A DNA stretch of 64,000 bases. It comes from a virus (lineage: Duplodnaviria > Caudoviricetes). A program made the translations under genes and the position numbers. Where the stretch lies: the IMG/VR virus record IMGVR_UViG_3300011152_000015, positions 1 to 64,000 of that record; one strand, 5' to 3'. Positions 30,941 through 44,063 of this stretch are shown here, one piece after another (the stretch's first letter is position 1; each line of letters opens with the position of its first letter). Below the pieces are notes generated by a model that made no database searches, was not told the DNA's origin, and saw nothing but the letters and a program-made list of their open reading frames with translations.

Positions 30941-31154
30941 GACGCACCCCCGCATCCAGTTTATCCAACAAGGTCTGGCAGTCGATGCACGTCTGGCAGC
31001 CCGGTGCTGCTTCGCGTCGAGCCTGCGGAATCTCTACGCCGCACTCCTCGCAATGCGTAGCACTCGGCCCGGTCGGCAGCTGCGCGCGGCGCGCCAAGGC
31101 CACCTCCAGCAGATACTCGGCCTGCTCATTGCCGCGGTCGATTACATCAGCCAT
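30933..31154 (-). CDS. TraR/DksA C4-type zinc finger protein
   Basis: MADVID, CEECG..IPQARR..PGCQTCIDCQ. Confidence 0.92.
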   Translation of the reverse strand: MADVIDRGNEQAEYLLEVALARRAQLPTGPSATHCEECGVEIPQARREAAPGCQTCIDCQTLLDKLDAGVRRG

Positions 31155-31650
31155 GGGTCACCTCCCCTTCTGCAACGGCCTCGAGCATCGCCAGCTCCGC
31201 CCCGGCCACGATGCCCAGCAGCTGAGCCACCACCTGGTTGGCGTGGTAGCGCAGCGCCTCCACCTCGTGGGGCAACCAACGGTCGTCGGCCACCCCCTCA
31301 TGCAGGCTCTGCACGAAGTCGCCCTTAGCGCGCATCACCTGGGCCAGCCCCTTCAACGCCTCGCGCGAGGCGCGAACCGGCACCGGCACATACGCCACCG
31401 CACCGGCCGGGCGCACCAAGGCCGCCAGCAGGCGCGGGTCCCGCGTGGCGGCCACGATCTCCTCCAGGAACTCAGGGTGGATGGGGCGGTTGTTGTTCGG
31501 GCTGACGCGCTTGTTCAGCTCGTCCGGGTCCATGCCGATGGTCAGCGCCACCGCATTCTGGCCCCCTGTTGCGTCGCGCGTGGCGCGGTACAGCGCCTGG
31601 CGGGTGTTCAGCACCGGGCCAGCGCCCGGTAATAGATCCTTGCGACTCAT
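31147..31650 (-). CDS. Phage regulatory CII-family protein
   Basis: GGQNAVALTIGM..LNKRVSPN HTH; located downstream of cro. Confidence 0.75.
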   Translation of the reverse strand: MSRKDLLPGAGPVLNTRQALYRATRDATGGQNAVALTIGMDPDELNKRVSPNNNRPIHPEFLEEIVAATRDPRLLAALVRPAGAVAYVPVPVRASREALKGLAQVMRAKGDFVQSLHEGVADDRWLPHEVEALRYHANQVVAQLLGIVAGAELAMLEAVAEGEVTHG

Positions 31651-31710
31651 AGCGTTAATGCCCCCTTAACGCTGTAGCCAACCGCAGGGCGATTGCCCTA
31701 CAGTTCGCTT

Positions 31711-31879
31711 ACAGCTCGCGACCCTCCCGATACGTGCTGTGTCCTCGGGTCGCGGGTTGAGGCGGTCGGGGTGGTACCCGACTACCGGACCGCAGGAACC
31801 AGGGCTGACGCTTTGGTGAGTGAACTGCCCTTGGTTCCTGCCTCTACACAAGCCTGCCGCCGTAGCGACAGGCTTTTTT
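31711..31879 (+). ncRNA. Candidate structured antisense/trans-acting sRNA
   Basis: TACAGT -10 at 31699-31704; stems 31712-24/31747-59, 31764-83 and 31792-805/31827-41; plus-strand terminator 31851-31879; loops complementary to repeated early-leader motifs. Confidence 0.7.
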
Positions 31880-31995
31880 GCTTCTGGGCTGCTTGCCCGG
31901 CGCCGGCCCGATGGCGCTGGTGAGGCTCTCGGGCCGGCTCCCGCCGTGATACTTGGTTGTTGCTGTGCTGTGTCCTGTCGGCGGGCTGTGATTCG

Positions 31996-32256
31996 TTATG
32001 CGCGGCGCTCGCCTTGTCGGCGTTCGTTCTGACGGCGATCCCCATCGCGTCGCTCAACGCGCGGATCCGCCGCAATACCGCCTTCCGCCAGCTCTTGTGC
32101 GTAAAGAGCCTCGATTGCCTTTCCAGTGGTGTATCGGATATCCGCGCCATTAAGCGCCCGATGAATCGTCGGCTGGGTGGTTCCCACCGCGTCGGCGATC
32201 GAGCCTTGCGAGTAGCCAAGTTCCACCAGTCGCTCAATCATCTTTTTGATTTTCAT
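31996..32256 (-). CDS. Cro-like HTH repressor with Arg-rich ERR/DRR tail
   Basis: SQGSIADAVGTTQPTIHR HTH; divergent from cI. Confidence 0.9.
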   Translation of the reverse strand: MKIKKMIERLVELGYSQGSIADAVGTTQPTIHRALNGADIRYTTGKAIEALYAQELAEGGIAADPRVERRDGDRRQNERRQGERRA

Positions 32257-32268
32257 CGCCTCTATACC

Positions 32269-32346
32269 TATGCGCATTCGCATTAAACTCGATAATACGC
32301 GGACGTATTAAATGAATCAATACACTTGCCTATACGTTTACGAATC
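32269..32346. promoter_or_regulatory. Three operators between cro and cI
   Basis: TATGCG-CATT-CGCATT (32269), AATACG-CGGA-CGTATT (32294), TATACG-TTTA-CGAATC (32331). Confidence 0.8.
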
Positions 32347-32356
32347 GGGCACGGAC

Positions 32357-33022
32357 ATGAACATAGGCAAGCGGCTTGCAGCCATGCTGGAGGAGCTCGA
32401 CTGGTCCGAAGGTGAGCTCAAGCGACGATCTGGCGTGCCGCAGCCCACCATCCATCGGATCATTACCGGCGAGTCTCAGGACCCCCGGCAAGGCAACGTT
32501 GAAAAGATCGCCAAGGCGCTTGGAGTAACTGCTCATTGGCTCCGCCATGGCGGCTCGAGGGACCAGAGCGTCAAGGAGGATATTGCGCTCTATGCTTCCA
32601 ACGTCGAGCCCGGCCCACCGATCACCAGCCCGTATCGCGCCATTAAGATCGTAGGCACAGCACAGATGGGCAACGAAGGCTACTGGTACGCCCTGGACGA
32701 GGCGGAAGGTTATATCGACGTACCGTCGCGTGATCCTGATGCCTACGCGCTACGGCTGAAGGGGCACAGCATGGCCCCAGCGATCAAAGATGGATGGCTG
32801 GCAGTAGTTGAGCCGAACAGCCCTCTGGTTCCGTTTGAGTACGTGATGATCCGCCTGCATGACGGCGAGTCCATGGTGAAAGAGCTTCTGCGCGCTACCG
32901 AAGATGAGGTGCTTGTAGGCTCCGTTAATAGCGAGTACGGGCGGCGCACGATTCCTACCGATCAGATCGAGCAGATCCACTATGTCGGCGGCATTGCTCC
33001 GCCCAGCAAGATTAGGCTTTGA
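32357..33022 (+). CDS. CI-like repressor (HTH plus S24 autopeptidase)
   Basis: ELKRRSGVPQPTIHRI; KGHSMAP serine; MVKEL lysine. Confidence 0.95.
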   Translation: MNIGKRLAAMLEELDWSEGELKRRSGVPQPTIHRIITGESQDPRQGNVEKIAKALGVTAHWLRHGGSRDQSVKEDIALYASNVEPGPPITSPYRAIKIVGTAQMGNEGYWYALDEAEGYIDVPSRDPDAYALRLKGHSMAPAIKDGWLAVVEPNSPLVPFEYVMIRLHDGESMVKELLRATEDEVLVGSVNSEYGRRTIPTDQIEQIHYVGGIAPPSKIRL

Positions 33023-33103: not shown

Positions 33104-33121
33104 TGTAAGCCATCACCTACA
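33104..33121 (+). promoter_or_regulatory. GacA-box-like upstream activating sequence
   Basis: TGTAAG-CCATCA-CCTACA versus consensus TGTAAG-N6-CTTACA (one mismatch), ~60-75 nt upstream of the GGA-rich RNA. Confidence 0.75.
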
Positions 33122-33177
33122 GCTGGCGTCATGATCAAGCCGTATCCGGCTCCGATCATTTCGATCATAGTTCGCTC

Positions 33178-33294
33178 GCAATAGCGCAGGACGCGCCCCG
33201 GGCCTGGAGGGCCGATGGACCACCGCGTGGATCGCGGAGCTTGGAGCACCGGGACAACAGCATCAATTCAGCCCCGCCTCGTGCGGGGCTTTTT
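33178..33294 (+). ncRNA. RsmX/RsmY-like CsrA-sequestering sRNA
   Basis: Seven GGA in ~70 nt, three in hairpin loops (GCGC-AGGAC-GCGC, GGCC-TGGAG-GGCC, CCGCG-TGGAT-CGCGG); terminator 33270-33294; 5' end estimated. Confidence 0.8.
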
Positions 33295-33420: not shown

Positions 33421-33440
33421 TACTGTATGGACATACAGCA
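33421..33440. promoter_or_regulatory. LexA (SOS) box
   Basis: TACTGT-ATGGACAT-ACAGCA upstream of ORF 33455. Confidence 0.88.
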
Positions 33441-33454
33441 GTAAGGAGCTTCTA

Positions 33455-33715
33455 ATGCCTTGGACACAGGCTCGCGCCATCACCCACCAGAGACATATTT
33501 CCAGCTACAACCGCCTGCTCCGGCGGGTGAACCATCTAATCACCACGCCACGCGCCAGGGCTGAACGCCAGGCGAACCTAGCCCGCCATCCTGACGACCG
33601 GCCCGAAGATTGGGAGCGCCTCTTGGATGAGATTCAGCAAACCGAAGGCGTCTCGATGACGCTTCGGTCGGACGGCAGCATCCATGTCCGATGGTTATCA
33701 GTCGAAACTTGTTGA
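33455..33715 (+). CDS. DUF1654-like protein
   Basis: SSYNRLLRRVNHLI...DWERLLDEI...DGSIHVRW; AAGGAG RBS. Confidence 0.75.
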   Translation: MPWTQARAITHQRHISSYNRLLRRVNHLITTPRARAERQANLARHPDDRPEDWERLLDEIQQTEGVSMTLRSDGSIHVRWLSVETC

Positions 33716-33734: not shown

Positions 33735-33797
33735 AATTCGCAATCGAATAAAGTAATGCGCTGACGTATTGACTGGAATAATACGTTGACGTATTGT
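33735..33797 (+). promoter_or_regulatory. Early promoter with three operators
   Basis: AATTCG-N4-CGAATA (33735), AATGCG-N4-CGTATT (33755), AATACG-N4-CGTATT (33780); TTGACT-N17-TATTGT at 33769-33797. Confidence 0.8.
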
Positions 33798-33831
33798 CTG
33801 TCGCGTACCCACTCACCAAGGGAACGCGACA

Positions 33832-34038
33832 ATGGACACAGCACGTCACAACACCACCCGCTGCCCGGTGTTCCTGCACCCGGCAGCCGCAACAAACCCC
33901 CGCACCGTCGCAAGCATCCAGCAGGCCACCGGCCAACTGATCGTGCTCGCCGGGGGCCGCCCGCAGCTCAAGCGCAACACCCTGCCCGCCCTTGATGATT
34001 ACCAAGGCTTTGGGCCGTTTGACGGAGGTGCGGCATGA
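33832..34038 (+). CDS. Hypothetical protein, first early gene
   Basis: 68 aa, AAGGGA RBS, ATGA overlap with the next gene. Confidence 0.75.
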   Translation: MDTARHNTTRCPVFLHPAAATNPRTVASIQQATGQLIVLAGGRPQLKRNTLPALDDYQGFGPFDGGAA

Positions 34039-34897: not shown

Positions 34898-35289
34898 ACA
34901 CCTGCATTGATGACGCCATCGGCGCGCTCAAACTCGTGCCGCTGCACTTCAGCCACCCCAGCATGATCAGCCGCGCCACCGTCATCGGCGCAGCCTGCGA
35001 GGCCCCGGCCCGGCTGGAGGCCATGCCCGCGCGCAGCAACGAACTGCTGGAGGCCTACCGCAAGGTGCGCCAGGTGCTGCGTGAGGGCGATACCGCCTAC
35101 GTCACCCCTACCACCTGCCCCGAGCGCCCGTTCGGCGCCGTCGTGGTGGATGCCTCCGGCCGGCTTGCCGCCTCCGCCACTGGCAAAACCATTGAAGGCC
35201 TCGCCGAACTGATCCGCCTGCGCCTCCCGGAGGCGAACCCGGCACACACCGCAGAGGGGCGCGGGGAGAAAGGAGGGCCGCAGGCGTGA
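34894..35289 (+). CDS. Hypothetical protein
   Basis: ATGA/GTGA coupling on both sides. Confidence 0.7.
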   Translation: MNTCIDDAIGALKLVPLHFSHPSMISRATVIGAACEAPARLEAMPARSNELLEAYRKVRQVLREGDTAYVTPTTCPERPFGAVVVDASGRLAASATGKTIEGLAELIRLRLPEANPAHTAEGRGEKGGPQA

Positions 35290-35549
35290 CCAGCACCTAC
35301 CAACAACTCCAGCGCCGCTACGACCGGCCCTGCCTGCCGCTCGACGATGTGCGCCGCGAATACCTGCCCCACATCAGCAGCGATGAATACCTGATGGAGG
35401 CCATCCGCACCGGCACCATCCGCCTGCGCTACGTGCGCCTGGGCGGCTCCCGGCTCGGCCCCCCCGTTGTTTACCTGCGTGACCTGGCCACCTGGCTGGA
35501 CGCGCACGACCCGAGCAACACCAAACCAGCCACTGACCCGGTGGCGTAA
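35286..35549 (+). CDS. PrtN-family protein
   Basis: LPLDDVRREYLPHIS...VYLRDLATWLD. Confidence 0.75.
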   Translation: MTSTYQQLQRRYDRPCLPLDDVRREYLPHISSDEYLMEAIRTGTIRLRYVRLGGSRLGPPVVYLRDLATWLDAHDPSNTKPATDPVA

Positions 35550-35574
35550 CCACTGCAAAAGGACACAGCACGTC

Positions 35575-35922
35575 ATGAAACCTACCGATACCAGCGAGTT
35601 CATCAACAGCCTCAACGCCGGCGTATTCGCCCAGCAAGTGGGTCGCGCCCTCTCCGACGTCGCCGCCGGCGTGGTCGAGCACGGCAAGAAGGGCAAGCTC
35701 AGCATCACCTTCGAGCTGAGCCAGATCGGCGAAAGCAACCAGGTGAAGATCAACCACAAGCTGGATTTCACCCAGCCCACCAAGCGCGGCAGCAAGCGCG
35801 AGGACACCGCCCTCGACACGCCCATGTACGTCACCGCCAACGGCCTGGAACTGTTCCAGACGGACCCGACCGCGCAGATGTTCAGCCGCGAGGAAGCGCC
35901 CGTAATCGCCCGCGAAGTCTGA
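35575..35922 (+). CDS. Conserved phage protein (partner of the DUF2303 gene)
   Basis: LNAGVFAQQVGRALSDVAAGV...TPMYV. Confidence 0.8.
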   Translation: MKPTDTSEFINSLNAGVFAQQVGRALSDVAAGVVEHGKKGKLSITFELSQIGESNQVKINHKLDFTQPTKRGSKREDTALDTPMYVTANGLELFQTDPTAQMFSREEAPVIAREV

Positions 35923-35973
35923 GCCGGCGCCTGACCCAGCAACACCCAAATCACTCACCAAGGAATCAACGCA

Positions 35974-36789
35974 ATGTCACTGACGAAAGAAACCATCCAG
36001 CACATCGAAGCCAACGCTATCGCCGCCCTTGGCGTCATGCCACACCAGCAGGTGCCGACGATTGCCCTGCCGGATGACATGAGCATCCACAACCTCGAGC
36101 GCTACGCCGAGTACCGCGCCCGCTTCCGTGGCGCGCTCAACACCCACGCCCTGGCCGACTTCGCCCGCTACGTCGAGGCCCGCGACGGCGACGGCGCCCG
36201 CGGCTTCATCGACCAGGACCGCATGTCCTGCAGCATCATTTTCAACCTGGGCAATGACCAGCTGGCCGGCCACGGCGACGACACCGCCACCCTTACCCTC
36301 AAGCCCACCGCCGCCTACAAGGCCCTGCTCGCCGCAGTAGGCCAGCGGCTCGACCAGCAGCAGTTGGCCGAATTCCTCGAAGACTGGGCGCCCAACATCA
36401 CCGCCTTCGCTGGCGATGAAAAACTGAACACCGCCCAAGCCATCACCGGCATCCGCAAGATGACCATCAAGGCCACCAGCCAGCGCGACAGCACTGTTGG
36501 CGACCTCAACCACGCCCGCAGCGCCATGGATGAAATCGAGGCCCGGAGCCAGGAAACCCTGCCGACCCGCTTCGAGTTCACCACGGTGCCGTTCGAGGGC
36601 CTGCAGCCCGCCACCATCACCCTGCGCCTGTCTGTCATCACCGGCAGCGATGCGCCCGTGCTCAAGCTGCGCTGGGTGGCCGAAGAAGCCCAGCGCGAAG
36701 AGTTCGCCCGTGAGTTCAAGGGCGTGCTGGAGCAGCAGGTCGGCGGCTTCGTTCCGCTCACCATCGGCACCTTCCAGCTCGGCGCCTAA
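35974..36789 (+). CDS. DUF2303/YfdQ-family protein
   Basis: RFRGAL, IFNLG..GH, AEFLEDW, RSAMDEIEA. Confidence 0.85.
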   Translation: MSLTKETIQHIEANAIAALGVMPHQQVPTIALPDDMSIHNLERYAEYRARFRGALNTHALADFARYVEARDGDGARGFIDQDRMSCSIIFNLGNDQLAGHGDDTATLTLKPTAAYKALLAAVGQRLDQQQLAEFLEDWAPNITAFAGDEKLNTAQAITGIRKMTIKATSQRDSTVGDLNHARSAMDEIEARSQETLPTRFEFTTVPFEGLQPATITLRLSVITGSDAPVLKLRWVAEEAQREEFAREFKGVLEQQVGGFVPLTIGTFQLGA

Positions 36790-36845
36790 GCCACCACCCG
36801 CCGGCCTCACCAGCCGGCGGGCACTCACAACAGGGGACACAGCAC

Positions 36846-37364
36846 ATGAACCTCACCACCTTCCAAACCATGGCCTTCATCGGCATGGTCGCCGGCATCG
36901 CTATCGTATTCGGCATGGGCTACCTCGAAGGTCGCCGCCGCTCGCTCAACGACTGGCAGCAGTACGCCGAGGATTCACGCAACCAGGCCAACCAGCTGCG
37001 CGCCACGCTGCACCAGGTACGCCACGACCTGGACATCCAGCGCCACAACGCCGCCCAGGCCCTGGAGGCCATGACCGAGCAGCACGACCGCCTCGCAAGC
37101 GAGGCCGCCACCCTGCAGCTGCGCCTCATCACCGCCCAGGAGCGCACCGAGGCCCTGCAAGCCACCGCCCTGAACGATGAAGCTGCCGAGGACCTGGCCG
37201 CCATGGCCGGCAAGCTCAGCCTGGCCGCCACCCAGTTCAGCCTCATGGGCGCCACCGACCAAGCCAGCAGCGCCCGCCACCTCGCCGCCAAGGCCCGCGA
37301 CCTCAGTCAGCGCTACTACAACGCCACCCCCGTGCCGGCCCAGCAGCAGGAGCGTGCAGCATGA
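36846..37364 (+). CDS. Hypothetical TM plus coiled-coil protein
   Basis: N-terminal TM helix followed by heptad-like region. Confidence 0.75.
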   Translation: MNLTTFQTMAFIGMVAGIAIVFGMGYLEGRRRSLNDWQQYAEDSRNQANQLRATLHQVRHDLDIQRHNAAQALEAMTEQHDRLASEAATLQLRLITAQERTEALQATALNDEAAEDLAAMAGKLSLAATQFSLMGATDQASSARHLAAKARDLSQRYYNATPVPAQQQERAA

Positions 37365-40400: not shown

Positions 40401-40447
40401 ACAACACCCGCCGCCTCACCAGCGGCGGCAGCACGGACACAGCACAC

Positions 40448-42130
40448 ATGAACAACCTCTACCGCATTCACCCCCAGGCCGGCATGAATTTCCACGGCCT
40501 GGTCATCGACAACTTCGCCGGGGGCGGCGGCGCCTCCACTGGCATCGAGCTGGGCCTCGGCCGGCCGGTGGACATCGCCGTCAACCACGACCCCGAGGCC
40601 GTGGCGATGCACGATATCAACCACCCGCACACCCGGCACTACTGCGAATCCGTATGGGAAGTGGACCCGCGCGTGATCGTCGACGGCCGCCCCGTCGACC
40701 TGGCGTGGTTCAGCCCCGACTGCAAGCATTTCAGCAAGGCCAAGGGCGGCGCACCGGTGAAGAAGGAAATCCGCGGGCTCGCCTGGGTCGCCATCCGCTA
40801 CGCCGCCACGGTCAAGCCCAAGGTCATCATGCTGGAGAACGTCGAAGAGTTCGTGACCTGGGGCCCGTTGGCCACTGACGGCCGCCCCTGCCCGAAGAAC
40901 AAGGGCCGCACCTTCGCCAGCTTCACCAACGCTCTGCGCCGCCTCGGCTATCAGGTGGACTGGCGCGAGCTGCGCGCCTGCGAATATGGTGCTCCGACCA
41001 TCCGCAAGCGCTTGTTCCTGATCGCCCGTTGCGACGGCCAGCCGATCGTCTGGCCCGAGCCCACCCACGGGGACCCGGCGAGCGAGGCGGTAAAGGCCAA
41101 GCGCCTGAAGCCCTGGCGCACCGCAGCGGAAATCATCGACTGGTCGCTGCCCTGCCCCTCGATCTTCGAACGCAAGCGCCCGCTGGCCGAGGCCACCCTT
41201 CGACGTATTGCTCGGGGCATCCAGCGCTATGTGCTGGAGTCGGCGAACCCCTTTCTGGTCAAGGTCAACCACGGTTACGACTACTTCCGCGGCCAGCCGC
41301 TGGACGAGCCCCTGCAGACCATCACCAGCAAGCTGGGCACCGGGCTGGTCGTGCCGACGCTGGCACCTTTCATCACAGAGCACGCCAACGGCAGCACCCA
41401 GCGCAACATGCCCGCCGACGCGCCGCTGCGCACCATCTGCGCCCAGGTTAAGGGTGGCCACTTCGCATTGGTCGCCCCGACACTGGTACAGGTCGGCTAC
41501 GGCGAGCGCAAGGGCCAGGCGCCACGCGTGCCCGGCCTAGATAAGCCGCTGGGCACAGTCGTCGCCGGCGGGCAAAAACACGGCCTCGTCGCCGCATTCC
41601 TCGCAAAACACTACGGCGGCAACTACACCGGCCCAGGCAGCAGCCTGGAAAACCCACTGCCAACCGCAACCACCGTCGACCACAACGCGCTGGTGACCAG
41701 CCACCTGGTGAAGCTTCGCAACAACCAGCACAGCCAGGCCGTGACCGAACCCATGCCCACCCTCACAGCCGGCGGCGGGCACGTCGGCGAGGTCCGGGCG
41801 TTCCTGCTGAAGTATTACGGGCATGGCGACGGTCAGCCCCTGCAGGAGCCGCTGCACACCGTCACCACCAAGGACCGCCACGCCCTGGTCATGATCAAGG
41901 GCGAGCCCTACCAGATCGTCGACATCGGCATGCGCATGCTCGAGCCGCACGAACTGTTCGCCGCCCAGGGCTTTCCCGCCGACTACATCCACAGCCGCAC
42001 CGGCGGCGGCAAGAAACTCAGCAAGGCCGCCCAGGTGCGCATGTGCGGCAACAGCGTCTGCCCACCGGTCGCCGCCGCCCTCGTCCGCGCCAACCTCGGC
42101 CAGCAGCAGATTGGGGAGGAAGCGGCATGA
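40448..42130 (+). CDS. DNA (cytosine-5) methyltransferase, orphan
   Basis: FAGGGG, SPDC, ENVEEF, RKRLF, CGNSV motifs. Confidence 0.95.
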   Translation: MNNLYRIHPQAGMNFHGLVIDNFAGGGGASTGIELGLGRPVDIAVNHDPEAVAMHDINHPHTRHYCESVWEVDPRVIVDGRPVDLAWFSPDCKHFSKAKGGAPVKKEIRGLAWVAIRYAATVKPKVIMLENVEEFVTWGPLATDGRPCPKNKGRTFASFTNALRRLGYQVDWRELRACEYGAPTIRKRLFLIARCDGQPIVWPEPTHGDPASEAVKAKRLKPWRTAAEIIDWSLPCPSIFERKRPLAEATLRRIARGIQRYVLESANPFLVKVNHGYDYFRGQPLDEPLQTITSKLGTGLVVPTLAPFITEHANGSTQRNMPADAPLRTICAQVKGGHFALVAPTLVQVGYGERKGQAPRVPGLDKPLGTVVAGGQKHGLVAAFLAKHYGGNYTGPGSSLENPLPTATTVDHNALVTSHLVKLRNNQHSQAVTEPMPTLTAGGGHVGEVRAFLLKYYGHGDGQPLQEPLHTVTTKDRHALVMIKGEPYQIVDIGMRMLEPHELFAAQGFPADYIHSRTGGGKKLSKAAQVRMCGNSVCPPVAAALVRANLGQQQIGEEAA

Positions 42131-42704: not shown

Positions 42705-43838
42705 TCACCGTTCCGCACGATCCACCCTGGCGCCCAGCTCAACGGGCGCCGCAATTATCTTCTCCAACCAATGCCAGCCGGCATATGGGTCGCCCCGCCC
42801 CCGCAGATGGGTATAACGCCGCAGCGAATTCCAATCCCGATGGCCAGACACGCTGGCCACCCGCGGGATATCCCAGTCCATCTCGAACAACCGGCTCACG
42901 CCATCATGTCGAAGGTCGTGAAACCATAGGTCGTCCAACTCCAGGAACTGGCCCGCCCGGGTAAACGAAGCGGAGATCGAGTCGCTGTTGTACGGAAAGA
43001 TTTCTTCACACTGCCTCGGCATGCTGTGCAGAATCGCCCAGGCCTCATCCGGCAGATGGCACCACACATCGTTGCCGATCTTCTGGCCAGGGTTCTTCAT
43101 ATCGCGAACCAGTACCGCCTGCCTCTTTTCATCCAGGTCGGCCCATCGGATACGCGTTATCTCCTCCTGACGCCGCGTGGAGAAAATGGCGAAACCGATG
43201 ACCTTCGGCATGTTGATGGAGGTCGGGCGACGCTTCTGCATCTCGAAGAAATGCTCGAGCAGCCTGTCCAGCTCATCCGCCGTGGGCCGGCGCTCGCGCT
43301 CTTCGCTCTTGGTGCGCACCCCGAGCTTGCGCAACACCTTGCGCGCATCACCAACCGCGTGCGGGTCGACGTCATAGCCCCAGGCCGGCTTGGCCACCGA
43401 TAGCACCGCCCCGAGGTGAGCCAGATCATTGCCAACGGTCTGCCCCTTCACGCCGCCGCCCTCTGGCCCCATCCGCCAGGTCGCGAACTCCACCAGCCGC
43501 TGGCTGTTCACCTCGGCATCGGTCAAGTCACCCAGCCAAGTGCTACCAATCGCTTTCAATGTTGCACGCTTGGTCTTGCCCAATGGCCGAATCCGTTCGT
43601 ACTCCTCAAGGTACTGATCGATGATATCTCGCAGTATCAGCGCCTTGCGATTCGCCCGCTCGAGCGCACCGGGCTCGGCCAGCTCCGTCTCCCGTCGCTT
43701 TACCCAAGCCTGGGCAGTCTGCTTGCGGTCGAAGGTCTGGCTTTCTTGGTAGACTACCTTTCCTTCGCGCTTGATCCTGATCTGCGCGGTATACCCAACC
43801 CCGCCGCCTTTGCGCGGCCGCGCCGTTATCGTCGCCAT
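42705..43838 (-). CDS. Tyrosine integrase, dusA-associated type
   Basis: STRRQEEI (R), MKNP (K), HDLRH, SGH..W..LRRYTH; divergent from the dusA 5' end. Confidence 0.95.
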   Translation of the reverse strand: MATITARPRKGGGVGYTAQIRIKREGKVVYQESQTFDRKQTAQAWVKRRETELAEPGALERANRKALILRDIIDQYLEEYERIRPLGKTKRATLKAIGSTWLGDLTDAEVNSQRLVEFATWRMGPEGGGVKGQTVGNDLAHLGAVLSVAKPAWGYDVDPHAVGDARKVLRKLGVRTKSEERERRPTADELDRLLEHFFEMQKRRPTSINMPKVIGFAIFSTRRQEEITRIRWADLDEKRQAVLVRDMKNPGQKIGNDVWCHLPDEAWAILHSMPRQCEEIFPYNSDSISASFTRAGQFLELDDLWFHDLRHDGVSRLFEMDWDIPRVASVSGHRDWNSLRRYTHLRGRGDPYAGWHWLEKIIAAPVELGARVDRAER

Positions 43839-43848
43839 CCTTTTCCCC

Positions 43849-43887
43849 GGTGCTACACGCCAAAACGGCGTCCTACAATGTAGCACC
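43849..43887. repeat. 9-bp inverted repeat upstream of the integrase
   Basis: GGTGCTACA-N21-TGTAGCACC. Confidence 0.6.
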
Positions 43888-43943
43888 GCCCCTGAAAAAA
43901 TGGGCAAAAACAGGCGAAAACGAGCAACAATCAGACAGCCGAA

Positions 43944-44063
43944 ATGCCAGAGAAAACCGCCTCCACGCCAGCAACCACGCGCCATGCACTGTCCCGCCGC
44001 TTCAGCGTGGCGCCGATGATGGATGGGATCGACTCAAAGCTCTGCAAGCCCCGTATTTCCTGA
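43944..44063 (+). pseudogene. dusA: 5' fragment of dusA containing the att junction
   Basis: MPEKTASTPATTRHALSRRFSVAPMMD, then GID and a premature stop where DusA continues WTDRHCR. Confidence 0.85.

Follow-up and report, generated by a model that had tools for sequence, protein, structure and literature searches.

What does the gap between cro and cII of a lambda-like prophage contain, and could an RNA transcribed from it address several early genes of the same genome? The DNA analysed here (the window) is 64,000 nt long and belongs to a 91-kb IMG/VR provirus record, the closest cultured relatives of which are the Stutzerimonas stutzeri phages PG1 and vB_PstS-pAN (pAN). A preliminary description, made from the sequence alone, had proposed that an antisense small RNA (sRNA) with two seed loops is encoded in this gap and coordinately silences at least five early cistrons. 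Our results make it very likely that the gap of this Stutzerimonas/Pseudomonas prophage carries a structured plus-strand sRNA gene of ~ 170 nt, the transcript of which has not been shown. The question of whether this RNA controls early genes is addressed step by step below.

Genome context and the putative sRNA gene

The cro-cII gap is 345 bp long, and the features of the region are collected in Table 1. The early-left (PL) operon on the plus strand encodes a 68-aa protein, a dNMP kinase, an excisionase-like protein, phrog_204, DUF2303/YfdQ, an exonuclease, a dNMP phosphatase, a Lar-like protein and a C5 methyltransferase. An operator palindrome, AATACGTTGACGTATT (33779-33794), overlaps the PL-like promoter, and a comparable palindrome, TAATACG-N4-CGTATTA (32293-32310), occupies the interval between cro and cI. 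Both are probably cI/Cro operators.

Table 1 Coordinates of the genes, sRNA elements and predicted target sites in the window
Feature	Position	Strand	Remarks
CII, CP76 family (PF06892; 186-type)	31147-31650	-	followed by TraR-like gene and primase
sRNA promoter	31675-31704	+	-35 TAGCCA 31675-31680; -10 TACAGT 31699-31704
sRNA gene (putative)	31709-31881	+	~ 170 nt; three stem-loops and terminator
sRNA stem 1	31712-31724 with 31747-31759	+	from the fold
Seed 1, loop 1: ACGUGCUGUGUCCU	31732-31745	+	pairs 11-14 nt at 33834, 35560, 36835, 40435 (+) and 31975-31965 (-)
sRNA stem-loop 2	~ 31761-31786	+	loop GUGGUA
sRNA stem-loop 3	31792-31841	+	from the fold
Seed 2, loop 3: CUUUGGUGAGUGA	31811-31823	+	
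sRNA terminator hairpin and T6	31851-31879	+	from the fold
PR (cro) transcript module	31902-31985	-	just past the cro stop; hairpins H-c and H-b
H-b	31938-31902	-	CUCACCA (31924-31918) in loop
H-c	31985-31940	-	GGACACAGCAC (31975-31965) in loop
cro-like HTH gene	31996-32283	-	likely true start 32256
cI, S24 peptidase domain	32312-33022	+	
Terminator beyond cI	33276-33289	+	
PL-like promoter TTGACT-17-TATTGT	33769-33797	+	sigma-70-type; from a promoter scan
Bipartite target 1, PL leader	33810-33846	+	CACUCACCAAGG in hairpin loop, running to SD AAGGGA; AUG 33832; GGACACAGCACGU 33834-33846
Target 2	35560-35577	+	AGGACACAGCACGU (14 nt); AUG 35575 of phrog_204 gene
Target 3, seed 2 only	35951-35976	+	UCACUCACCAAGG overlaps SD AAGGAA; AUG 35974, DUF2303/YfdQ gene
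Bipartite target 4	36797-36848	+	hairpin 36797-36821, loop CUCACCA; GGACACAGCAC 36835-36845; AUG 36846
Bipartite target 5	40408-40450	+	hairpin 40408-40428, loop CUCACCA; GGACACAGCAC 40435-40445; AUG 40448, C5 cytosine methyltransferase
Integrase gene	42705-43985	-	

Several neighbouring features were recorded as observations in their own right. A LexA-box-like palindrome, TACTGTATGGACATACAGCA (33421-33440), lies directly upstream of an 86-aa ORF (33455-33715, +) of unknown function (phrog_2707), situated between the cI terminator and PL; by analogy, this ORF could be an SOS-controlled gene like 186 Tum. A GGA-rich structured stretch (33104-33294, +) is found between the cI terminator and a second terminator (33276-33289), and the whole-window Rfam gathering scan returned no Rsm family match for it. 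The cII start codon is preceded by the hairpin AGCGUUAA-GGGGGCA-UUAACGCU (31650-31673, -), whose loop is the Shine-Dalgarno (SD) sequence. As the hairpin is kept in pAN with a different stem (GGUAG...CUACC), it is likely to be a conserved structure governing cII translation.

The spacer of the sRNA promoter is 18 nt long and contains the palindrome GGGCGATTGCCC. All 32 distinct upstream sequences (32/32) fit the pattern (G/A)TAGCC(A)-N17/18-TAnnnT at a constant distance from a conserved CTACAGC start, and the distant type represented by loci L196 and L197 keeps the promoter as TAGCCA-N17-TACTAT. Since only the T-A---T positions of the -10 hexamer are fixed and the middle positions are free to vary, we read the promoter as sigma-70-type. 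It lies within a ~ 45-bp palindrome (31671-31715), the arms of which cover the -35 element and +1 and the inner part of which reads GGGC-N4-GCCC. In homologues the complementarity of this palindrome is kept, and its sequence is not; it may form a long hairpin on the PR transcript or serve as a regulator site. The palindrome in the promoter is unrelated to the cI/Cro operator-like palindromes.

The plus strand of 31706-31880 folds with -95.5 kcal/mol (z = -6.1) into three stem-loops and, ahead of a T6 tract, a terminator hairpin; the minus strand of the same block also folds well (-86.1 kcal/mol, z = -5.9). In the minimum free energy fold a weak 5-bp helix takes in part of loop 1, which counts against an exposed first seed. 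Helix 1 includes one invariant G.U pair, and several pairs alternate between G.U and A-U or G-C. Most family members end in a hairpin and a T-rich tract, the tract being poor in some distant ones; the terminator hairpin with its U-tract is the only Hfq-related trait visible in the sRNA. Loop 2 (GUGGUA) hardly varies and is similar to loop 3 (UGGUGAG). The two loops share the sequence GGUCAGAG in L196/L197, and loop 2 is for this reason perhaps a second copy of seed 2.

Two other possibilities were considered. RNAalifold pairing of the 5' ACAGC with loop 1 came from a MAFFT alignment that mis-registered stem 1 between subfamilies; the alternative ACAGC/GCUGU pairing has no covariation, yet it cannot be excluded. 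A small protein encoded in the sRNA is ruled out by 1-, 2- and 3-nt indels in the loops and stems of homologues.

Searches with blastn and a covariance model (R1) revealed ~ 50 distinct versions of the sRNA, each upstream of a CP76-type cII, in PG1, pAN, IMG/VR contigs and prophages of Stutzerimonas (S. stutzeri), Pseudomonas and Halopseudomonas. The window sRNA scores 188 bits with R1. The sRNA of L196/L197 reaches an E-value of only ~ 0.01 and accompanies a CII that is just 47% identical, with the same position and promoter. A near-identical prophage region was also met in two metagenome-assembled genomes labelled Bacteroidetes and Phycisphaerae (L188 and L191), which are probably mis-binned Pseudomonadaceae prophage contigs.

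Covariation across related prophages and Rfam searches including C4-like families had been named in the preliminary description as checks, and both were run. For the former, alignments were built with the covariance model, replacing MAFFT. In the diverse alignment A3 (20 sequences), 94% of the cells are paired and 23 of the 41 pairs show compensatory (two-sided) changes, a stem covariation that none of 500 shuffles reached (0/500) and that slid controls came nowhere near. The loops are the most conserved parts of the family. The Rfam check gave no family match: the Rfam 15 cmscan of the whole window at gathering scores returned 0 hits, and cmscan of 31300-32400 with E up to 10 returned four chance-level matches to unrelated families and no C4. 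The claim that such an RNA is undescribed for this phage type fits these results, the absence of any annotation in the sRNA gap of the PG1 and pAN records, and the literature as searched: publications on phage sRNAs, PG1/pAN and c4 contained no description of the cro-cII sRNA, and a 2025 review of phage sRNAs contained nothing comparable to it.

Another question is which strand is active. An A.C pair on the plus strand corresponds to a G.U pair on the minus strand, so the relative frequency of the two carries strand information. In the sRNA stems of 40 distinct sequences G.U pairs prevail over A.C pairs (141 vs 30). This count is biased to the plus strand, the alignment having been fitted to a plus-strand model, and no correction was made for shared ancestry. 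However, the neighbouring hairpin H-b shows the opposite bias (plus-strand A.C 23 vs G.U 6), so base composition does not account for the bias of the sRNA stems; by the same counts, H-b is inferred to act on the minus strand. For H-c the counts (22 to 19) favour neither strand. At the PL-side target hairpins the A.C counts stem from C/A-rich flanks and thus give no strand information. A plus-strand sRNA beside a minus-strand hairpin of the PR mRNA (H-b) is the simplest reading and a likely one.

Could the plus-strand transcript instead arise mainly as a terminated leader from an establishment promoter that CII activates, equivalent to lambda PRE or 186 pE? Read-through would then run antisense through cro into cI, and the sRNA would be a by-product or an attenuator, which is compatible with pairing in trans. 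PRE and pE are known to sit at the start of cII and to point towards cro and cI, and the sRNA promoter is placed likewise. In addition, CII here belongs to the 186 CP76 family, cI lies downstream on the same strand, and the promoter is inside a conserved palindrome that could bind a regulator. Against this, a strong intrinsic terminator (GC-rich hairpin and T6) stands 115 nt before cro, and the -35 element is recognisable and invariant, in which it differs from typical CII-dependent promoters. What is conserved in the palindrome is the complementarity and not the sequence, and this points to an RNA hairpin more than to a protein site. We also looked for a motif (a CII box) common to the sRNA promoter and other promoters, and found none. 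This explanation also leaves the seeds, the five targets and their co-variation, described below, unaccounted for, and we consider it unlikely.

Seeds and target sites

Loop 1 (GUGCUGUGUCC) of the proposed sRNA complements the motif GGACACAGCAC, which occurs at four start codons of the PL operon (+) or immediately ahead of them; the core of the loop, GCUGUGU, is invariant across the family. There are exactly six copies of GGACACAGCAC in the 64 kb and no extra copies with one mismatch, compared with a mean of 1.45 and a maximum of 5 in shuffles with one mismatch allowed. Four copies are on the plus strand (33834, 35561, 36835 and 40435) and two on the minus strand (31975-31965 and 31744-31734), the last being the complement of loop 1 itself. 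The plus-strand copies lie 0-3 nt before the ATGs at 35575, 36846 and 40448 and overlap the ATG at 33832, where the target 1 motif extends over the first codons of the 68-aa gene (33832-34038; phrog_13491).

The core of loop 3, UGGUGAG, is matched by CUCACCA, either in hairpin loops or against the SD sequence just upstream of the start. Seed 2 complements 33810-33821 and 35951-35963 over 10-13 bp, one G.U pair included, and the 7-nt hairpin loops at 36806, 40415 and 31924-31918 (-). CTCACCA is the loop of the GC hairpins at 36797-36821 and 40408-40428, while the longer form, (T)CACTCACCAAGG, is found at 33810 in the PL leader and at 35951 before the ATG at 35974 and continues into the SD sequence; as RNA, this version reads (U)CACUCACCAAGG in the PL leader and before the DUF2303 gene. 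All of the mapped PL-operon junctions with a gap of at least 25 nt (4/4) carry a target site, and so does the PL leader. The PR transcript module, with both motifs, is kept in nearly all homologues.

Both strands were scanned for duplex energy (21,324 windows) using the seed nucleotides only, as inclusion of stem nucleotides swamped the scan with GC-rich background. All five non-self loop-1 sites (5/5) were within the top 9 of the 21,324 windows. For loop 3, the two long sites ranked 6 and 11, and the 7-nt hairpin-loop sites were unranked. Loop 3 alone is not exceptional by duplex energy in GC-rich DNA over these 21,324 windows, and the case for it therefore rests on adjacency to loop-1 sites and on co-variation.

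Every coordinate given in the preliminary description for the sRNA, its loops and the target motifs proved correct. Its claim of at least five early cistrons held in the form of five translation starts (33832, 35575, 35974, 36846 and 40448), their silencing being inferred, and the reversed order of the motifs on the cro transcript was also confirmed and corresponds to the H-c/H-b module.

Loops and targets change together across related phages

If the loops read the target motifs by base pairing, a change in one should be met by a change in the other, and this co-variation had been named beforehand as a test of the two-loop RNA with bipartite targets. It was found: seed and target alleles change together across related phages. 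The loops GGUAAG, GGUAGG, GUCAGAG, GUGUCU and UGGCUGUGU are accompanied by the targets CUUACC, CCUACC, CUCUGAC, AGACAC and ACACAGCCA, respectively. Alleles were counted on both strands of 43 distinct loci. Loci with a GGUAAG sRNA have 2-4 sense-strand copies of CTTACCA, and those with other recognised loop-3 alleles have 0-1, the mosaic L128 excepted. The GGUAGG sRNAs are accompanied by 2-6 copies of CCTACCA, the GUCAGAG sRNAs (L196/L197) by 4 copies of CTCTGAC, and the GCUGUGUCU sRNAs by 2-3 copies of AGACACAGC and 0-1 of GGACACAGC. For UGGCUGUGU sRNAs, 2 copies of ACACAGCCA were counted, and every other locus among the 43 has zero. On the antisense strand, the counts of target motifs are near zero in the 43 loci.

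These counts correspond to particular sites. In PG1-type phages loop 3 reads GGUAAG, and CUUACC occupies the PL-leader, pre-DUF2303, hairpin-loop and PR-transcript sites. L037 and L189 combine loop 3 GGUAAG with loop 1 GUGUCU and have the targets CUUACC and AGACACAGCA, while L050, L071, L051 and L194 combine GGUAGG with UGGCUGUGU and have CCUACC and (G)ACACAGCCA. In L196/L197, loops 2 and 3 show GUCAGAG and the target hairpin loops read CUCUGAC; their loop 1 (GUGCUGUGC) is matched by four (G)CACAGCAC boxes, each directly before an ATG. The entire second seed has been swapped in these two loci with the architecture retained. The allele of target 3 (pre-DUF2303) tracks the sRNA loop in PG1, L050, L128, L189 and L194, and in hairpins homologous to target 4 the stem-loop is kept and the stem sequence varies, but the loop follows the cognate sRNA. 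The reading frame of the PL-leader box differs between phages (ATG-GACACAG in the window vs ATGC-AGACACAG in L041, with L050 also different), which indicates that the box is constrained at the nucleotide or RNA level and not at the protein level. Three loop-3 alleles can be linked via G.U intermediates, a path that is inferred and would be expected of compensatory evolution.

There are exceptions, all of them in loop 3. In L011 (loop 3 UAGCGAGCG) and L101/L140 (UUGCGAGUG) the targets remain CTCACCA, with two central mismatches, so that no match exists; in the mosaic L128 the match is partial, loop 3 fitting just one of its targets. The loop-3 seed is absent from L046 and L123. In view of these exceptions, seed 1 looks universal and seed 2 looks like an accessory contact, which could have been reshuffled by module exchange.

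It could be argued that the repeats act at the level of DNA, as sites of protein binding or recombination, or that they are a reused ribosome-binding cassette without a partner RNA. The recurrence of the cassette at gene starts speaks for this possibility. However, the motifs are strand-specific, as the near-zero antisense counts in the 43 loci demonstrate, and are placed at translation starts, and an independently conserved structured gene shows their exact complements in its loops and co-varies with them. This explanation is all but excluded.

A more serious objection is that co-variation of loops and targets alone cannot exclude a shared protein reading same-sense motifs, since the complement of the sRNA on the PR transcript bears the same motifs as the targets. 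According to this alternative, RNA motifs on the PR and PL transcripts are read by a protein or host factor (a translational regulator, or antitermination of the nut/put type), the active strand of the cro-cII block is the minus strand, and the promoter and terminator on the plus strand are incidental. The PL leader and the cro-cII gap are known as the places of lambda nutL/nutR and HK022 putL/putR, the good fold of the minus strand reported above would be consistent with such an element, and the co-variation fits it as well, as the minus-strand complement of the sRNA carries the target motifs. On the other hand, the G.U to A.C ratio of 141 to 30, with H-b as a control of opposite bias, favours the plus strand, and the promoter and terminator signals are conserved on that strand only. 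There are at least five sites per genome and not two, and the sites are on start codons; the order and spacing of the motifs vary (24 nt in the leader, ~ 80 nt in the gap, reversed in the PR (cro) transcript module); and the first PL protein (68 aa, phrog_13491) has no arginine-rich motif at its N-terminus. Thus, the same-sense element appears unlikely.

Proposed mechanism and comparison with known RNA regulators

The preferred reading is that of a two-seed antisense sRNA, which we regard as likely to control early genes at the RNA level in a way that has not been described before. The analysis shows the signals of the gene and its structure, as well as the complementarity and co-variation of loops and targets; expression, repression and role are inferred. 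In this reading, a primary plus-strand transcript of ~ 170 nt would start near 31709-31712 (an inferred start site), end at the terminator at 31879, and run convergent with, and antisense to, the PR (cro-cII) transcript, presenting two seeds atop long stable stems. Seed 1 would pair with (A)GGACACAGCAC(GU), that is, with the SD GGA and the spacer, and the duplex would reach or cross the AUG. Seed 2 would pair with CUCACCA in one of two modes: a 7-bp loop-loop kiss with the hairpin that precedes the seed-1 site by 13-22 nt, or a 12-13-bp duplex continuing into the SD sequence. The target sites are at junctions where translational coupling would be broken (a gap of at least 25 nt), and pairing is predicted to block 30S binding at the five cistrons starting at 33832, 35575, 35974, 36846 and 40448. 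Pairing in the leader may also bring polarity or decay to the whole PL operon. The excisionase-like gene (35286-35549, +; phrog_1300; PrtN family in the PG1 annotation) lies immediately upstream of target 2; being inside the PL operon, its expression would also fall under leader-level silencing.

On the PR transcript, the sRNA would kiss H-c and H-b, and the next 170 nt are fully complementary to it. By analogy with lambda OOP, the resulting duplex would be expected to lead to cleavage between cro and cII, upstream of cII. The candidate roles, all inferred, are the quenching of leaky early-left expression in lysogens, an aid to timing or to the lysogeny decision, and cross-immunity.

The sRNA could also pair as described and act as an activator, opening the target hairpins or stabilising the mRNAs as a positive early-left timer. 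Three targets do have a hairpin just upstream of the ribosome-binding site, and sRNAs that activate by relieving such structures exist. However, the SD GGA and the spacer lie within the stretch paired by seed 1, as does the AUG in the leader, so that the duplex would occlude the ribosome, and the target hairpins sequester neither the SD sequence nor the AUG. Activation is thus very unlikely. The coordinate silencing proposed in the preliminary description is an interpretation that the comparison supports, with transcription, repression as opposed to activation, and role remaining inferred.

The closest parallel to the preferred reading, silencing by a two-seed sRNA, is c4 of phages P1 and P7, whose loop seeds pair with a bipartite target over the ribosome-binding site and whose seed alleles set specificity (PMC12197685). 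The P4 CI RNA and the N15 CA RNA share this principle. Like these RNAs, the cro-cII sRNA has separate loop seeds and bipartite targets with one part over the ribosome-binding site, the pairs of sites for loops 3 and 1 being 33810/33834, 36806/36835 and 40415/40435. The differences are considerable: the sRNA has no match to the Rfam C4 covariance model, even at E up to 10, and is ~ 170 nt long in contrast to ~ 70-80 nt for the c4 type. While c4 is cut from the leader of the operon that it controls (RNase P), the cro-cII sRNA has its own promoter and terminator and is not co-transcribed with its targets, being located 2 kb away from PL and on the other strand than PR; that it is not released by processing is inferred from this arrangement. 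The c4 type controls a single antirepressor operon, whereas the cro-cII sRNA has at least five target cistrons and the PR-transcript site and, again unlike the c4 type, is encoded antisense to the PR transcript, within the cI-cro-cII region of a lambdoid phage. It is therefore not a member of the C4 family, and we regard it as a new family built on a known regulatory principle.

Other systems share single features with it. Lambda OOP is likewise short, has its own transcription and terminator and is convergent with PR near cII, and by analogy the cro-cII sRNA would be expected to lower cII-operon expression by duplex formation. However, OOP is a purely cis-acting RNA that overlaps cII at its 3' end, while the cro-cII sRNA (31709-31881) lies upstream of cII (31650-31147, -), does not reach its 3' end and has predicted targets in trans, in the PL operon at a distance of 2-9 kb. 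Similar to P22 sar, it would be a small phage antisense RNA blocking translation initiation of early regulatory genes, which is inferred here; sar is a pure cis-antisense RNA to ant, lacking both separate loop seeds and a set of several target genes. R1 CopA/CopT and ColE1 RNA I/RNA II also have complementary loops on both partners, as UGGUGAG and CUCACCA are here. Plasmid kissing systems of this kind nucleate via 6-7-nt complementary hairpin loops, but, unlike the cro-cII sRNA, they are cis-encoded, serve replication control and have a single target.

A bolder reading, which we put forward only as a possibility, combines three elements: an 'RNA repressor and operator' system of one sRNA with two exchangeable seeds and modular leader cassettes; a cassette, made of a kissing hairpin and an anti-RBS box, at every uncoupled early-left cistron and on the PR transcript; and alleles (at least four of seed 2 and at least four of seed 1) that define RNA specificity groups cutting across cI immunity types. 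In such a system, heteroimmune relatives with the same cassette allele could have their early genes silenced by a resident prophage, which would amount to RNA-based cross-immunity.

Known phage antisense RNAs (c4, CI, CA, sar, OOP and aQ) each control one gene or operon leader. The cro-cII sRNA appears to address a regulon in its own genome via a reusable two-part leader cassette, and it does so from within the lysis-lysogeny core of a lambdoid phage in which cI, cro and cII are present as well. The family is widespread in Stutzerimonas, Pseudomonas and Halopseudomonas prophages, and its natural series of seed and target alleles amounts to a ready-made compensatory-mutation experiment, and the prediction is directly testable, as two cultured phages, PG1 and vB_PstS-pAN, carry the sRNA. 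If true, it would provide a design for RNA regulators in Pseudomonas that are compact, orthogonal and directed at several targets. For the phages themselves, an RNA layer would be added to the lambdoid switch.
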